From Smithella sp. PtaU1.Bin162 (GTDB lineage: Bacteria > Desulfobacterota > Syntrophia > Syntrophales > Smithellaceae), in NCBI GenBank assembly GCA_002068015.1, contig MVRV01000077.1:784-64783 (forward strand): a stretch of DNA of 64,000 bases, given 5' to 3'. Shown piece after piece: positions 18,402 to 22,996 of the stretch (within the stretch, counting starts at the first letter, position 1; every line of letters begins with the position of its first letter). The translations under genes and the position numbers were made by a program. The notes beneath the pieces were generated by a model. That model saw only the letters and a program-made list of their open reading frames with translations, had not been told where the DNA came from and ran no database searches.

Positions 18402-18478
18402 TGGTCGGGATGGCGCGATTTGAACGCGCGACCCCTGCGTCCCGAACGCAGTGCCCTACCAAACTGGGCCACATCCCG
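18402..18478 (-). tRNA. tRNA-Pro(CGG)
   Basis: Reverse complement reads CGGGATGTGGCCCAGTTTGGTAGGGCACTGCGTT-CGG-GACGCAG...GTTCAAAT...ATCCCGACCA. Confidence 0.95.
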
Positions 18479-18660: not shown

Positions 18661-19086
18661 GTGAATAAAGTGATTATTTTCGACTTAAAATGTGAAAATG
18701 GCCATAAATTCGACGGTTGGTTTAAAGACCGAGAGGCCTTTGCTGAGCAGAAAACGCAGAAACTTGTGGCTTGTCCAATATGTAATAGTTGTGGAGTTGA
18801 TATTATTCCTTCTTCTATAACGATTATGGGTAAAGACTCCCGAAATGTCGGTAAGGCGGAAGAAAAGGAAATTTCTCCGGAAAAAGTTCTGCGAATGCTG
18901 CATCGATATATAGATAAAAATTTTGAAGATGTGGGTACTAAATTTGCCGAAGTTGCCTTAAAGATTCATTTTGGAGAAGAAGAAAAACGTAACATTCGGG
19001 GAACTACTACTCCTCAGGAAGACGACAATTTGCGAGAAGAAGGTGTTCAGTTTATTAAAATTCCTGTTCCTAAGATGGACAGCTAG
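18661..19086 (+). CDS. DUF1178 family protein
   Basis: FDLKCENGHKFDGWF, CPIC, FEDVG.KFAE.A.KIHFGE...RNIRG motifs. Confidence 0.88.
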   Translation: MNKVIIFDLKCENGHKFDGWFKDREAFAEQKTQKLVACPICNSCGVDIIPSSITIMGKDSRNVGKAEEKEISPEKVLRMLHRYIDKNFEDVGTKFAEVALKIHFGEEEKRNIRGTTTPQEDDNLREEGVQFIKIPVPKMDS

Positions 19087-19167: not shown

Positions 19168-21519
19168 ATGCATAAATTTTATAAAAATATCCTTGACGGT
19201 ATCGGTAATACGCCTCTTGTTGAAATTAACCGACTCAATCCCAATAAAAAGGTAAGGATCATGGCAAAAATAGAAAGTGCCAATCCCGGTGGGTCGATCA
19301 AAGATCGTACTGCTTTGTTCATGATAGAGAGGGCGGAAGAAAGAGGAGAGTTAACCCCTGATAAAATCATACTGGAGGCTACAAGCGGCAATACGGGAAT
19401 CGGTCTGGCCATGATTGCCGCAGCAAAAGGATACAAGCTGTGTCTGACTATGTCGGAGGCGGCAAGTGAGGAACGGAAAAAGATTCTACGTGCTTTGGGA
19501 GCTGAATTGATTTTTACGCCGGCAGCTCAGGGGACAGACGGAGCCATTGAAGTGGCATATAGGATGCTGCGTGAAAATCCCGCTAAATATTTCGGTACGG
19601 ATCAGTTCAATAACGAAGACAACGTTTCCGCTCACTATTACGGTACGGCTCAGGAAATTTGGGAGCAGACGGACGGTGCCGTAACAATGGTTGTGGCAAG
19701 CTTGGGAACCACCGGCACGGCCATGGGGATTTCCAAAAGACTCAAGGAACTAAATCCGCAGATTAAAATTGTCGGCGTGGAACCATATTTGAAGCATAAA
19801 ATTCAGGGCTTGAAAAATATGCGGGAGTCTTATCGACCGGGCATATTTGATAAGAATCGCCTGGATGAAAAGGTCAATATTCTGGATGAAAATGCCTTTA
19901 CCATGGCACGCCGGCTTGCCCGTGAAGAAGGGATTATGGCCGGTATGAGTTCCGGCGCAGCGATGTTTGTTGCCATTCAAAAAGCAATGCAGGTGCAGGA
20001 AGGCCTGATGGTTGTTATTTTACCCGACAGCGGCGAAAGATATTTAAGTACGGAGTTATTTGCAGTCAAAGAGGAATCGTCGGCGTTAAGTCTTTACAAT
20101 ATTTTGAAACGCCAGAAGACTATCTTTAAACCGGTTAATTCCGGAAAAGTTCTCATGCATACGTGCGGTCCGACTGTCCATGATGCGCCGCATATGGGTA
20201 ATTACCGCCGCCTCGTTGTTTCCGATTTGGTCCACCGATATTTGACTTATCAGGGATACAATGTTCAACACATAGTGGATATTGTTGATTTAACTGATAA
20301 ATCTGTTAAAGGTTCCGAGAAGGAAGGCATGAAACTTGAGGATTATACTAACAAATATTTGCAGGTGTTTTTACATGATATGGAATCTTTGAACATTCGG
20401 AATGATAATGTTTATGTTAAAGCTTCCGATAACAGTGATGAAATGTTCAAAATAGTTGAAAAATTAGTTGATAAAAATTATGCCTACGAAAAATTACATT
20501 CGGTTTATTATGATATATCAAAATTAGCGGATTACGGACTTCTTTCCAATGTGAATTTGCATAAAACCAGACAGACTAAAACAATTGACCTCGATGATTA
20601 TGAAAAAGACAGCCCTATGGATTTTGCCCTTCTCAAGAGAGCAAGCCTGGGAGAATTGAAAAGAGGCGTATATTATAAAACGAAATGGGGAAATATCCGG
20701 CCGGGATGGCATATAGGATGTGCGGCAATTTCTCATAAATACCTGGGTTCACTTTATGACATTCATATAAGTGGAGTGGATGAAGTTTTTCCTCATTGCG
20801 AAAATATTCTGGCCATCAACAAGTCGCTTTCCGGGAAAAACGGCGCTAATTACTGGCTTAATGCCGAGCTGGTTATGGTTGCCGGCAGAAAAATGTCCCG
20901 GTCGCTCAATAATGCCCTGCCTTTATCCCAATTGTTCCAAAAAGGTTATTCCGGCCGGGATGCGCGGTTTTTTCTTCTGGGAGTACACTATCGTAAACCG
21001 CTCAATTATTCGGAAGAGGCAATGGTGGCCGCGAGGAATAATGTTAAAAAAATCGATATGTTTATTTGTAGGTTGAGTGCGGTCAATAATGAAGAAAATG
21101 GTTATGCAGATGTGGATCAGCTGATTTACGATCTTAAAAATGGTTTTGCCGCAGCACTGGATGATGATTTGAATATTGCCGGGGCTTTGGCTGTGCTTTT
21201 TGATTTTATCGGTAAAATAAATGCTCCTTTAAACCAGGGAATGATAAGTAAGTCTGACAGCTGCAAAATTCTGGAGGCAATGAAAAGCATCAATGAAATC
21301 ATTGCTGTAGTTGATTTTGAAGTGCGTCCTACCTCTAAAGAAGTACTGGAATTAATTGCCAGAAGAGAATCGGCCCGCAAGGCAGGCAAGTGGCAGGAAG
21401 CGGACCTTTTGCGGTCTCAGCTTGCCGAATTAAATGTTGAAGTAATGGATATGCCGCAGGGACCGGTTTGGCGTTTTAAGACAAAAACAGTTCCTGAAAA
21501 CGAGCGTAGCGAAGTTTGA
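19168..21519 (+). CDS. Fusion of a PLP-dependent cysteine synthase (CysM/CysK-like) and a divergent class I cysteinyl-tRNA synthetase
   Basis: Residues ~1-300: IGNTPLV, NPGGSIKDR, EATSGNTG, GTTGT, PDSGERYLS. Residues ~307-770: CGPTV..PHMGN, RPGWHIGC, FPHCEN, KMSRS, DDDLN. Single uninterrupted frame. Confidence 0.92.
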   Translation: MHKFYKNILDGIGNTPLVEINRLNPNKKVRIMAKIESANPGGSIKDRTALFMIERAEERGELTPDKIILEATSGNTGIGLAMIAAAKGYKLCLTMSEAASEERKKILRALGAELIFTPAAQGTDGAIEVAYRMLRENPAKYFGTDQFNNEDNVSAHYYGTAQEIWEQTDGAVTMVVASLGTTGTAMGISKRLKELNPQIKIVGVEPYLKHKIQGLKNMRESYRPGIFDKNRLDEKVNILDENAFTMARRLAREEGIMAGMSSGAAMFVAIQKAMQVQEGLMVVILPDSGERYLSTELFAVKEESSALSLYNILKRQKTIFKPVNSGKVLMHTCGPTVHDAPHMGNYRRLVVSDLVHRYLTYQGYNVQHIVDIVDLTDKSVKGSEKEGMKLEDYTNKYLQVFLHDMESLNIRNDNVYVKASDNSDEMFKIVEKLVDKNYAYEKLHSVYYDISKLADYGLLSNVNLHKTRQTKTIDLDDYEKDSPMDFALLKRASLGELKRGVYYKTKWGNIRPGWHIGCAAISHKYLGSLYDIHISGVDEVFPHCENILAINKSLSGKNGANYWLNAELVMVAGRKMSRSLNNALPLSQLFQKGYSGRDARFFLLGVHYRKPLNYSEEAMVAARNNVKKIDMFICRLSAVNNEENGYADVDQLIYDLKNGFAAALDDDLNIAGALAVLFDFIGKINAPLNQGMISKSDSCKILEAMKSINEIIAVVDFEVRPTSKEVLELIARRESARKAGKWQEADLLRSQLAELNVEVMDMPQGPVWRFKTKTVPENERSEV

Positions 21520-21613: not shown

Positions 21614-22435
21614 ATGGAAACTATTAGAAAATCGGTTATAGCGGGCTCCTGGTATCCGGGTAAACCGTCTGTTTTGAGAAAGGATATTGAAGATTATTTT
21701 TCTCAGGCTGCTGATGCTGAAGTTAAAGGAGAAATAGTAGGACTTGTTGCACCTCATGCCGGTTATGTTTATTCCGGACAAGTGGCGGCTTATGCCTATA
21801 AACTTGTTCGCGGTAAAAAGTACGATGCCGTTGTTGTCGTGGGGCCCAGTCATCGCGTTGCTTTTTCCGGTGTATCAGTATTCAGTAAAGGCGGCTATGA
21901 AACACCTTTAGGAGTAGTTTCAGTCGCGGAAGATTTAGCAGAGGATATTGAGAAATTCAGTAAAGTCGTTAACGATATTCCGGCTGCCCACTTACAGGAA
22001 CATTCTGTGGAAATTCAATTACCTTTTTTACAGGTTGCTTTAGGTAATATTTCTTTTGTTCCCCTGGTGATGGGAGATCAAAGAGTGGAAACATGTTATG
22101 ATCTGGCTGCGGCGATTTATCAAGCTGCCCGGGGGAAAAAAATTTTGATTGTAGGCAGTTCCGATCTGTCACATTTTCATAATTATGCATCAGCCGCACA
22201 GATGGATGCGGTCGCTTTAAAGCATTTGCAGGATGGCGACGCTGCCGGTTTGTTGAAGAGCTTGGATAGTGATATTTGTGAAGCTTGCGGCGGCGGTCCT
22301 ATGGCCGTTGCCATACTTACGGCCGGACGCATGGGCGCGGCGAAAGCGCAACTGCTCAAGTATGCCAATTCAGGAGATGTGACGGGTGATAAAAGTTCCG
22401 TGGTTGGATATGCTGCGGCTGTTTTTTATGCATAA
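21614..22435 (+). CDS. amrB: AmmeMemoRadiSam system protein B (MEMO1 family)
   Basis: AGSWYP, PHAGYVYSG, GPSH, EHSVEIQLPFLQ, SSDLSH, ACGGGP and VVGY motifs. Confidence 0.93.
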   Translation: METIRKSVIAGSWYPGKPSVLRKDIEDYFSQAADAEVKGEIVGLVAPHAGYVYSGQVAAYAYKLVRGKKYDAVVVVGPSHRVAFSGVSVFSKGGYETPLGVVSVAEDLAEDIEKFSKVVNDIPAAHLQEHSVEIQLPFLQVALGNISFVPLVMGDQRVETCYDLAAAIYQAARGKKILIVGSSDLSHFHNYASAAQMDAVALKHLQDGDAAGLLKSLDSDICEACGGGPMAVAILTAGRMGAAKAQLLKYANSGDVTGDKSSVVGYAAAVFYA

Positions 22436-22447
22436 GAGGAGTTTAAT

Positions 22448-22996
22448 ATGGAATTAACGGAAAAAGAAAAAGAAGTTCTTCTGGATATTGTAAAAAAAAC
22501 AATTGCCGGCAGACTCAACAATAAAAACCTCCCTAAAATATCAGTCGATTCGGAAACTCTCCAGGAAAAAAGAGGTGCATTTGTTACCTTAAAAAAAAGA
22601 GGTCATCTGCGGGGCTGCATTGGCTATATCAAGGCAGTAAAACCACTCTGGGAAACTGTACAGGAAATGGCTGTAGCCGCTGCCTTTCACGATCCCCGAT
22701 TTCCGTCATTGAAACCGGAAGAGTTTAAAGATTTATCTTTGGAAATTTCCGTATTGAGCCCACTGCAGCGAATAGATGATATTAATGTCATTGAGGTGGG
22801 AAAACATGGCTTATATATTGTTCGGGGTTATAATTCCGGACTGCTTCTGCCACAAGTGGCAATAGAATATGGCTGGGACAGGGAAACATTTCTTAAGGAA
22901 ACGTGTTATAAGGCTGGTTTGCCACCACAGGCCTGGATGGATAAAGAAACAGAAATTTATATTTTTTCCGCAGATTATTTTGGCGATATGGATTAA
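22448..22996 (+). CDS. amrA: AmmeMemoRadiSam system protein A (AMMECR1 family)
   Basis: GAFVTL....LRGCIG, DPRF, LLLPQV and KAGL motifs. Confidence 0.93.
   Translation: MELTEKEKEVLLDIVKKTIAGRLNNKNLPKISVDSETLQEKRGAFVTLKKRGHLRGCIGYIKAVKPLWETVQEMAVAAAFHDPRFPSLKPEEFKDLSLEISVLSPLQRIDDINVIEVGKHGLYIVRGYNSGLLLPQVAIEYGWDRETFLKETCYKAGLPPQAWMDKETEIYIFSADYFGDMD

Follow-up and report, generated by a model that had tools for sequence, protein, structure and literature searches.

A cysteine synthase fused to a diverged cysteinyl-tRNA synthetase paralog is widespread in the Desulfobacterota and currently mis-annotated

Introduction

What does a tRNA synthetase-like domain do when it is attached to the enzyme that makes its own amino acid? 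The question is raised by a gene of Smithella sp. PtaU1.Bin162 (order Syntrophales, phylum Desulfobacterota), here called P0001, which joins a pyridoxal 5'-phosphate (PLP)-dependent cysteine synthase to a cysteinyl-tRNA synthetase (CysRS)-like protein. It lies in a window of 64,000 nucleotides, the whole stretch of DNA that was analyzed (contig MVRV01000077.1 of assembly GCA_002068015.1, positions 784 to 64,783 of the forward strand), and positions below are those of the window unless another contig is named. A sequence-only reading of this DNA had described altered CysRS motifs in the gene and offered two explanations, namely a channeling enzyme that makes cysteine and loads it on tRNA, or a repurposed paralog that activates a different thiol amino acid or feeds a sulfur relay.

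Here, we report that a synthetase paralog has been recruited to the biosynthetic enzyme of its amino acid, and that the resulting fusion is widespread and currently mis-annotated. The reading that we tentatively prefer, at somewhat less than even confidence, is that P0001 would be a CysE-independent cysteine synthase fused to a CysRS-derived ligand-binding module with an accessory or regulatory role.

Results

The fusion is a genuine gene with two complete parts

The whole fusion is contained in a single unbroken open reading frame (ORF), in which the synthase half is N-terminal and the CysRS-like half, composed of a catalytic domain with its connective polypeptide (CP) and an anticodon-binding region, is C-terminal:

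19168..21519, + strand: fusion gene P0001, 783 aa plus stop codon (ORF list, translation, two-domain architecture)
19189..20028, + strand: CysM-like PLP cysteine synthase domain, PALP, aa 8-287 (PF00291, 235 bits)
20125..21036, + strand: CysRS-like Rossmann/CP catalytic domain, diverged, aa 320-623 (PF01406, 272.6 bits; alignment to E. coli 1li5)
21145..21474, + strand: DALR_2 and CysS_C anticodon-binding region, aa 660-769, signature residues canonical (Pfam)

Pfam placed PALP at residues 8-287, tRNA-synt_1e at 320-623, DALR_2 at 660-712, and CysS_C at 723-769. P0001 scored above the cut-offs of both NCBIfam models concerned, cysKM TIGR01136 (371.1 bits; cut-off 344.15) and cysS TIGR00435 (371.2 bits; cut-off 340). 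The earlier description of one 783-aa frame that joins an intact PLP cysteine synthase to a class I CysRS is thus borne out by the ORF, Pfam, and NCBIfam. An assembly artifact or chimera was ruled out, since both Pfam domains are present in 120 of 120 homologs among the matches listed (at least 73% identity; Smithella, Smithellaceae, and Syntrophaceae metagenome-assembled genomes), at 77 of 80 related loci the CysRS-like half is immediately preceded, in frame, by the CysM half (the remaining three begin at a contig end), and the fusion recurs across the order and the phylum. The suspicion that it might be absent from relatives therefore fails.

The fused half is a second, diverged copy of CysRS

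A separate canonical cysS was found elsewhere in the same genome (G000:C182; 488 aa, 560.6 bits with TIGR00435), and its HIGH, DFALWK, WHIEC, DIHGGG, FPHHENE, and KMSKS motifs are all intact. The second cysS that the sequence-only reading had suggested looking for is therefore present, and P0001 is not the only one. Among 121 sampled genomes of the order, a canonical cysS (E<=1e-110) was detected in 116, including 96 of the 98 that carry the fusion; the two fusion genomes with no such match are 87% and 75% complete. Thus, the fused copy is nowhere seen replacing the canonical enzyme.

We placed 112 CysRS-type domains in a tree (IQ-TREE quick, LG+G4; ten order members and fragments of <430 aa left out). 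All sequences with a DFxL[LF]K-type motif (30, plus three others) fell on one side of a branch supported at 98% by the Shimodaira-Hasegawa-like approximate likelihood ratio test (SH-aLRT), so that the phylogeny called for earlier puts the fused half in a separate paralog clade. The opposite side holds 79 canonical-side rows, 58 of them with fully canonical motifs, and the CysRS of the same genome is included there. Support of 100% was obtained for a clade of the Syntrophales fusions and also for one of the Desulfovibrionales fusions, whose stem is long (0.93).

Compared with canonical CysRS (TIGR00435; 1li5/1u0b), the fused half has the same domain order of Rossmann fold, CP, stem-contact fold (DALR_2), and anticodon domain, and it shares C28, W205, H206, C209, H234, H-x-G, and KMS-x-S. 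It passes the TIGR00435 cut-off and has the anticodon-binding domain, but departs from the canonical enzyme in the second lysine of KMSKS, the Zn/cysteine pocket, its position in the tree, and the cysS role in the cell. It differs further in being a second copy placed behind a cysteine synthase, in belonging to a separate clade, and in the replacement of 15 of 59 near-invariant positions; its identity to the CysRS of its own genome is 35%. These comparisons indicate that the fused half is a diverged CysRS paralog, with housekeeping charging presumably done by the separate canonical cysS. The earlier suggestion of a repurposed paralog, as opposed to a housekeeping enzyme, gains support from the canonical cysS in the genome and from their co-occurrence in 96 of 98 genomes.

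A different protein, P0124 (768 aa), consists of a CysK fused to a CysRS with canonical DFVLWK, WHLEC, FPHHQNE, and KMSKS motifs. Since it nests among the canonical CysRS, it represents a separate fusion event, which means that CysK and CysRS became linked on at least two occasions.

The amino-acid pocket is rebuilt, whereas the anticodon-binding signature is canonical

Residues of P0001 were mapped by a HMMER alignment to E. coli CysRS (1li5), which located the following motifs in the CysRS-like half:

20164..20202, + strand: CGPTVHDAPHMGN, aa 333-345, C28 equivalent and HIGH-type motif HMGN (translation, 1li5 alignment)
20284..20286, + strand: V373 at the canonical T68 position (1li5 alignment, column census)
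20620..20637, + strand: DFALLK, aa 485-490, W184->L, hallmark of the entire fused-paralog clade (column census)
20707..20721, + strand: WHIGC, aa 514-518, W205, H206, and C209 retained, E208->G (translation, alignments)
20788..20808, + strand: FPHCENI, aa 541-547, H234 retained, H235->C544, E238->I547 (column census)
20890..20904, + strand: KMSRS, aa 575-579, K269->R (column census)

DIHISG was found at aa 531-536, and every motif quoted by the sequence-only reading (SIKDR, DFALLK, WHIGC, DIHISG, FPHCENI, and KMSRS) stands in the translation. Most of the changes that it listed are fixed throughout the order; WHIGC is the exception, because the E208G replacement is private to this genome, relatives read WH[IL]EC, and it is thus not a family feature. 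In E. coli CysRS we take C28, C209, H234, and E238 to be the Zn ligands. The alignment confirmed that the first three are kept in P0001 (C333, C518, and H543, respectively), that the Glu position is occupied by Ile (E238->I547), and that a new Cys sits beside the His (H235->C544); K269 is replaced by R578. One further pocket change, T68->V373, was absent from the earlier list; T68 of CysRS presumably touches the substrate amino group. According to Akaike 2017 (PMC5660078), the active-site Zn of CysRS is bound by C28 and C209.

For a census of the family, 59 columns that are at least 93% conserved in 58 canonical CysRS were scored in 21 Syntrophales and 11 Desulfovibrionales fusions, and these three sets underlie the column counts that follow. 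Of these columns, 44 are kept in the Syntrophales and 25 in the Desulfovibrionales fusions. The 15 columns replaced in Syntrophales are mostly fixed to a new residue, with replacements such as Y27H, Y34H, T68I/V, W184L, G201V, G204S, S210A, M212I, G226S, H235C, E238V/I, Q241I, H256N, and K269R. Several of them recur in Desulfovibrionales, namely W184L, G201V, G204S, S210A, Q241I, a hydrophobic residue for E238, L/M for H235, and A for T68. The shared replacements would fit a paralog that arose before these clades diverged, while the tree leaves the relationship of the clades unsettled.

Several replacements separate the fusions cleanly from the canonical enzymes. The T68 position is I/V in 21/21 order members and T in 58/58 canonical CysRS; W184 is W in 58/58 canonical sequences and L/F in 21/21 Syntrophales and 11/11 Desulfovibrionales fusions; and K269, which is K in all 58 canonical sequences, is R in 20/21 and Q in 1/21 order members. 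FPHCEN is invariant in 21/21 order members, with V or I at the E238 position, and both H235 and E238 are found in 58/58 canonical CysRS. The C28 equivalent is kept in 18/21 order members and is Ser in 3/21. HIGN-type motifs are common in canonical CysRS too, and HMGN falls within canonical variation. The CysRS-like half has a mean column identity of 71% within the order, where FPHCEN and KMS.S are invariant, which points to strong purifying selection on this half.

The anticodon-binding region has a different pattern. Equivalents of R423, R427, W432, D436, R439, D451, and G455 are invariant in 21/21 order members, and that of W458 is retained in 20/21; in canonical CysRS, R423 is found in 52/58, D436 in 51/58, and R439 in 52/58 sequences. 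Residues of the R423/D436/R439 type are, we assume, those that contact the anticodon.

The fusion spans the phylum, with graded decay of the adenylation motifs

Fusion-type matches were found in 98/121 sampled Syntrophales genomes. In 89 of these 98 a single frame is nearly full length; the other 9 lie at contig ends or are truncated or split. At least 578 stretches related to the locus encode a FPHCENV-type domain, and a whole-fusion profile matched 122/301 genomes and 79/201 genera of the phylum. Two ~700-aa fusion ORFs (G057:C7:173018-175024 and G112:C14:17234-19258) align to the query over residues 2-679 only; both are without the C-terminal anticodon-binding part and lie away from contig ends.

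A same-type fusion family in Desulfovibrionales gave 1387 matches at E<=1e-20 among 8000 scored candidates. In these copies the PLP half is intact, and C28, HIGH, C209, DIHGGG, and KMSKS are gone, so that their CysRS-like half appears catalytically dead. They retain DFTLLKR, WGNVRPSW, FPH[LM]ENL, and the C-terminal anticodon domain.

Retention was further counted in 20 phylum-wide fusions, hand-picked for long contigs and different families:

KMS[KR]S: kept in 3/20
H-x-G of HIGH: kept in 8/20
Zn triad C28/C209/H234: kept in 15/20
W205: kept in 18/20
E238: kept in 14/20
T68: kept in 14/20
W184: kept in 0/20
Anticodon-domain R427/D436/R439 equivalents: kept in 19/20

According to these counts, the tRNA-binding architecture is held everywhere, the thiol/Zn pocket comes next, and the adenylation motifs are expendable; catalysis thus appears to be dispensable across the fusion family. 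Judged by its motifs, the Syntrophales form seems the least decayed for ATP binding, yet the amino-acid pocket of this form is remodeled (T68V, H235C, and E238I). Database naming is inconsistent, as the same fusion is called 'cysteine--tRNA ligase' in Syntrophales and 'cysteine synthase' in Desulfovibrionales.

The synthase half is complete and is used in genomes devoid of CysE

The PALP half carries the SIKDR lysine (K45), the TSGNTG loop, and the GTTGT loop. In this fold the SIKDR lysine forms the Schiff base, and TSGNTG and GTTGT are the substrate and phosphate loops. SIKDR (K45), TSGNTG, and G(T/S)TGT show little or no variation among 21 order members and in both clades, and the mean column identity of the half is 80% in these 21 members. 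Both equivalog models score below their cut-offs (cysM 361 vs 394 bits and cysK 327 vs 351 bits), and the closest solved structures are cysteine synthases, CysM among them. P0001 shares the PLP fold-II signatures of the CysK and CysM sulfhydrylases, being about equally close to solved CysM and CysK1-type enzymes, and differs from them by its 480-aa CysRS-like C-terminal extension. The fusion is the only cysK/M match over cut-off in its genome, which is 100% complete. The N-terminal half therefore looks like a CysM-like PLP beta-replacement enzyme and the sole cysK/M of the organism.

No cysE was found over cut-off in this genome (best match 53.3 bits vs 210.65). Across the phylum, a true cysE (over cut-off) is present in 69/301 genomes, in only 3 of the 122 with the fusion (G154, G310, and G343) vs 66 of the 179 others, and in the order sample it occurs in 13/98 fusion genomes vs 10/23 others. 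The families are almost complementary in this respect: fusion vs cysE is 8/8 vs 0/8 in f33, 8/9 vs 0/9 in f41, and 8/8 vs 0/8 in f43, and it is reversed in f35 (0/9 vs 8/9) and f36 (0/9 vs 9/9). Because the fusion is almost confined to genomes without a true CysE, the classical CysE-CysK complex is impossible for it. The fused synthase would accordingly work without CysE-supplied O-acetylserine and outside the CysE-CysK regulatory complex, and O-phosphoserine is its likely serine donor. A tRNA-dependent O-phosphoserine (Sep) route was ruled out by the absence of the corresponding synthetase, SepRS, from the genome (best match 28.5 bits).

Three points in this material go beyond the sequence-only reading: the fusion and cysE nearly exclude each other, the anticodon-binding domain is conserved, and the family has spread through the phylum.

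Two side observations concern cysE. In 38/121 order genomes there is only a sub-cut-off cysE-like match, mostly at ~156-172 bits vs 210.65 and in ORFs of ~310-420 aa; these may represent a divergent acetyltransferase family, and this genome contains none. In one order genome (G073:C129:223-2227), a second canonical-type cysS comes immediately after an additional cysE, besides the fusion and the main cysS of that genome. This second cysS is 51% identical to the canonical CysRS of the Smithella genome, and the pair looks acquired.

Proposed function and alternatives

In the proposed mechanism, the CysRS-derived half would dock tRNACys(GCA) through the retained anticodon-binding and CP domains, and in most lineages its Zn/thiolate pocket would bind cysteine. 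Binding of tRNACys or cysteine would tune or gate the fused synthase, and such gating would stand in for the feedback control exerted in other bacteria by CysE and the CysE-CysK complex. The tRNA binding, the cysteine binding, and the allosteric coupling to the synthase are suggested by analogy with known synthetase-derived modules. Two marks of a pseudo-synthetase are found in the family, since adenylation motifs are dispensable while binding parts are kept, and the domain is covalently coupled to the cognate biosynthetic enzyme. The Syntrophales form keeps H-x-G, KMS-R-S, and three Zn ligands; its binding of ATP and a thiol is thus probably preserved, perhaps along with some adenylation activity.

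Complex prediction for the synthase half against the CysRS-like half gave a score of 0.42 (best of three controls 0.00), with at least 86% contact agreement between runs and a partner predicted local distance difference test (pLDDT) value of at least 83. The mark that this score passes is reached by 116/157 solved complexes and 2/215 mismatched pairs, and the passing scores of <=0.60 comprise 18 of the 157 solved complexes and both passing mismatches. The prediction therefore lends weak support to a specific interface between the two halves.

A bolder form of the proposal, possible but more doubtful than the general one, would make the fusion a bacterial counterpart of GCN2 and HisZ, in which tRNACys docking and cysteine at the Zn site allosterically set the rate of the fused synthase. 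It would operate in a CysE-free pathway of ~40% of the sampled Desulfobacterota, with the Syntrophales form as an ATP-binding evolutionary intermediate.

A number of results weigh against a regulatory module. Since the Zn site is gone in Desulfovibrionales, cysteine sensing cannot be a role shared by the entire family, and the 20 phylum-wide fusions are a non-random sample. Within the order, H342, G344, K575, M576, S577, S579, D538, C518, and H543 of the CysRS-like half are invariant (H533 is kept in 19/21 members and W514, the W205 equivalent, in 20/21), a motif set that would look like that of a still-active adenylate-forming enzyme. Regarding the pathway, cysE is lacking in 232/301 phylum genomes, 113 of which are also without the fusion, and the cysE and fusion counts come from related genomes that are non-independent samples. 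As for the proposed donor, no serC_1 was found over cut-off in this genome, where the best match has 48 bits. The neighborhoods described below point to no functional partner, the complex prediction is a weak pass as evidence for an interface, and the regulatory role itself is drawn by analogy.

The motif set of the order is what would be expected if the Syntrophales half were a working, maybe slower or specialized, Cys-tRNACys ligase fed by the fused synthase, such that the free cysteine pool is kept low and the canonical CysRS serves imported or pooled cysteine. We consider such channeling unlikely, although it has several points in its favor: the TIGR00435 score over cut-off (371 vs 340 bits); the retained H-x-G, KMS-R-S, C28 (18/21), C209, H234, and anticodon domain; the independent fusion P0124 of CysK with a canonical CysRS, by which such a linkage can be useful; and the weak predicted interface (0.42 vs best control 0.00). 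In addition, an E. coli CysRS K269A mutant still supports translation according to the accessible part of PMC5660078, so K269R need not abolish activity, which counts both for channeling and against a purely regulatory half. Opposed to this, T68, H235, E238, Q241, and H256, invariant in 58/58 canonical CysRS, are all replaced, and the C28 equivalent is Ser in 3/21 order members. None of the 98 fusion genomes that is complete lacks a canonical cysS, so the two are not redundant. Orthologs keep the fusion despite losing KMSKS (17/20) and HIGH (12/20), and Desulfovibrionales have lost HIGH, KMSKS, and the Zn cysteines; channeling into tRNA charging, the first of the two earlier explanations, fits these losses poorly.

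The other earlier explanation, a synthetase with an altered thiol substrate, could apply to the Syntrophales form only. Here, the pocket would activate a thiol or selenol product of the PLP half (Cys persulfide, S-sulfocysteine, homocysteine, or selenocysteine) and transfer it to tRNACys or a different acceptor. CysM-type enzymes can use alternative sulfur nucleophiles. The ATP motifs and three Zn ligands survive, the pocket replacements are hydrophobic, a new invariant Cys544 lies next to H543, and the genome holds a tRNASec-like tRNA (U73, UCA anticodon), all of which are compatible with this idea. However, the canonical anticodon domain implies that the target is ordinary tRNACys(GCA), whose mis-acylation would corrupt translation, and BLAST found a selC*-like tRNA in only 3/121 order genomes vs the fusion in 98/121. 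The lysines K73 and K269 of cysteine persulfide synthase (CPERS), as far as the accessible part of their source describes them, are mostly Arg in the fusions. Orthologs in other orders appear catalytically dead, and the evidence, including our tests, gave the idea no support and singled out no particular substrate, so that we regard it as very improbable. Scarcely more credible is an inert appendage, in which the CysRS-like half is a scaffold for folding, oligomerization, or stability that binds no ligand. The loss of catalytic motifs in many lineages and the lack of a conserved partner gene would suit a scaffold, but the anticodon signature is kept in 19/20 and the Zn triad in 15/20 fusions phylum-wide, and FPHCEN, KMS.S, and W514 are invariant or nearly so in the order. 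Such selective conservation of ligand-contact positions is not expected of a mere scaffold.

Relation to known systems

The closest precedent is HisZ, a HisRS paralog and the regulatory subunit of the ATP phosphoribosyltransferase HisG. A 2022 review of aminoacyl-tRNA synthetase (aaRS) paralogs describes it as non-adenylating and as the mediator through which the cognate biosynthetic enzyme is feedback-controlled (PMC9437257). Like HisZ, the fusion family ties an aaRS paralog to the enzyme that makes its cognate amino acid and has undergone family-wide decay of adenylation motifs with the amino-acid site mostly kept. HisZ is class II and a separate subunit, whereas P0001 is class I, covalently fused, and has kept the anticodon domain; regulation is suggested for it by analogy. 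The HisRS-like domain of GCN2 is a sensor of uncharged tRNA. P0001 resembles GCN2 in carrying a degenerate synthetase-like domain with retained tRNA-binding parts on an effector enzyme, but the effector of GCN2 is a kinase, while that of P0001 is a metabolic enzyme, bacterial, and its tRNA binding is predicted.

MshC (Cys:GlcN-Ins ligase), which we take to have no anticodon-binding domain, was rejected as an identity for the fused half, as P0001 scores 176.2 bits vs 485.1 with TIGR03447 and has an anticodon domain. Under CysRS, the accessible portion of the 2022 review lists only MshC and CysRS* (PMC9437257). The latter, known from Desulfobacterales, has no anticodon-binding domain and is linked to selC*/selB*, as far as the available text of PMC5389517 goes. 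Both are, like the fused half, diverged CysRS paralogs found beside the canonical enzyme (PMC5389517, PMC9437257). P0001 differs from CysRS* in having the anticodon domain and in being unlinked to selC*/selB*; it lies between a Zn-ribbon ORF and AmmeMemoRadiSam genes, with the selC*-like tRNA on another contig, and CysRS* was rejected as well. Our literature search, from whose coverage most subscription journals fell outside, found no description of a cysteine synthase-CysRS fusion.

CysRS paralogs with new jobs are few, and this fusion is abundant in a major anaerobic phylum (122/301 genomes). Should it act as a sensor or regulator, it would reveal how cysteine synthesis is controlled in bacteria without serine acetyltransferase and would add a class I member to the HisZ-type synthetase-derived regulators. 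The family offers a natural series from near-active to dead synthetase domains on a constant enzyme partner, which suits the study of aaRS repurposing. In annotation and pathway reconstruction, the fusion gene should not be scored as cysS.

Gene neighborhood

The features that adjoin the fusion are the following:

18402-18478, - strand: tRNA-Pro (CGG)
18661..19086, + strand: upstream 141-aa Cys-rich zinc-ribbon-like ORF, upstream in 71/80 related loci
21614-22996: AmmeMemoRadiSam system proteins B (273 aa) and A (182 aa), encoded immediately downstream of P0001
23166-23889 and 24124-35309: tRNA cluster Thr-Tyr-Gly-Thr, then Trp, in a span with nusG and the following ORFs

The zinc-ribbon-like ORF had no NCBIfam match and was not detected by tblastn (E 1e-3) beside 20 fusions of other orders; it is a syntenic neighbor within the order only. 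AmmeMemoRadiSam B is syntenic at 45 and A at 43 of the 80 related loci; the tRNA cluster comes next, and no radical-SAM partner adjoins the pair. The gene nusG (checked by family model) is followed by five ORFs sized like rplK, rplA, rplJ, rplL, rpoB, rpoC. The locus in the order reads yicC-gmk-pyrF-rlmB-pilC-Zn ribbon-FUSION-AmmeMemoRadiSam B/A-tRNAs-nusG-rplKAJL-rpoBC, an arrangement that resembles the cysE-cysS-rlmB...nusG region of Firmicutes.

Outside the order the neighbors vary. The thymidylate kinase gene tmk adjoins the fusion in 5/20 loci (L151, L153, L154, L157, and L164), and at two of these five an OB-fold/HD-domain gene lies beyond it. No cysE was found near the 20 out-of-order fusions, nor any sulfur carrier except one ThiF. 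A conserved operon partner was ruled out, the context being housekeeping synteny in the order and variable neighbors elsewhere, and the neighborhoods single out no functional partner. An upstream riboswitch or T-box was likewise rejected, as Rfam at the gathering threshold gave only tRNAs in the window.

A selC*-like tRNA and persulfide synthesis

Two further ideas about the CysRS-like half concern persulfides and selC*. A CARS-like persulfide synthase was considered for this half and rejected, because the positions of K73 and K269 are mostly Arg. These are given as the PLP-binding lysines of CysRS persulfide synthesis in the accessible part of Akaike 2017 (PMC5660078), and their replacement makes a CARS-type activity of the CysRS-like half unlikely.

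A second tRNASec-like gene was observed outside the window, at L010:7214-7305 (G000:C183:7214-7305), with a UCA anticodon and a U73 discriminator. It has an 8-bp acceptor stem and a 4-bp T stem, and scores 47.1 bits with Rfam tRNA-Sec. A selC* was reportedly listed in a Smithella genome by Mukai and colleagues in 2017. The tRNA fits the selC* tRNACys of Mukai et al., as described in the accessible text of that paper (PMC5389517). By BLAST, which is insensitive with a 92-nt tRNA query, a selC*-like tRNA was found in 3/121 order genomes, all of the same family as the Smithella genome, vs the fusion in 98/121; an Rfam scan of the order was noisy, with many matches of 47-64 bits. We softly reject P0001 as a dedicated selC* synthetase on the basis of these counts and its canonical anticodon domain. 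There is no selB* downstream of the selC*-like tRNA, the genome having a single selB, and the tRNA is flanked by a YedE-like Sulf_transp gene and a DUF3343 Se/S-carrier gene.

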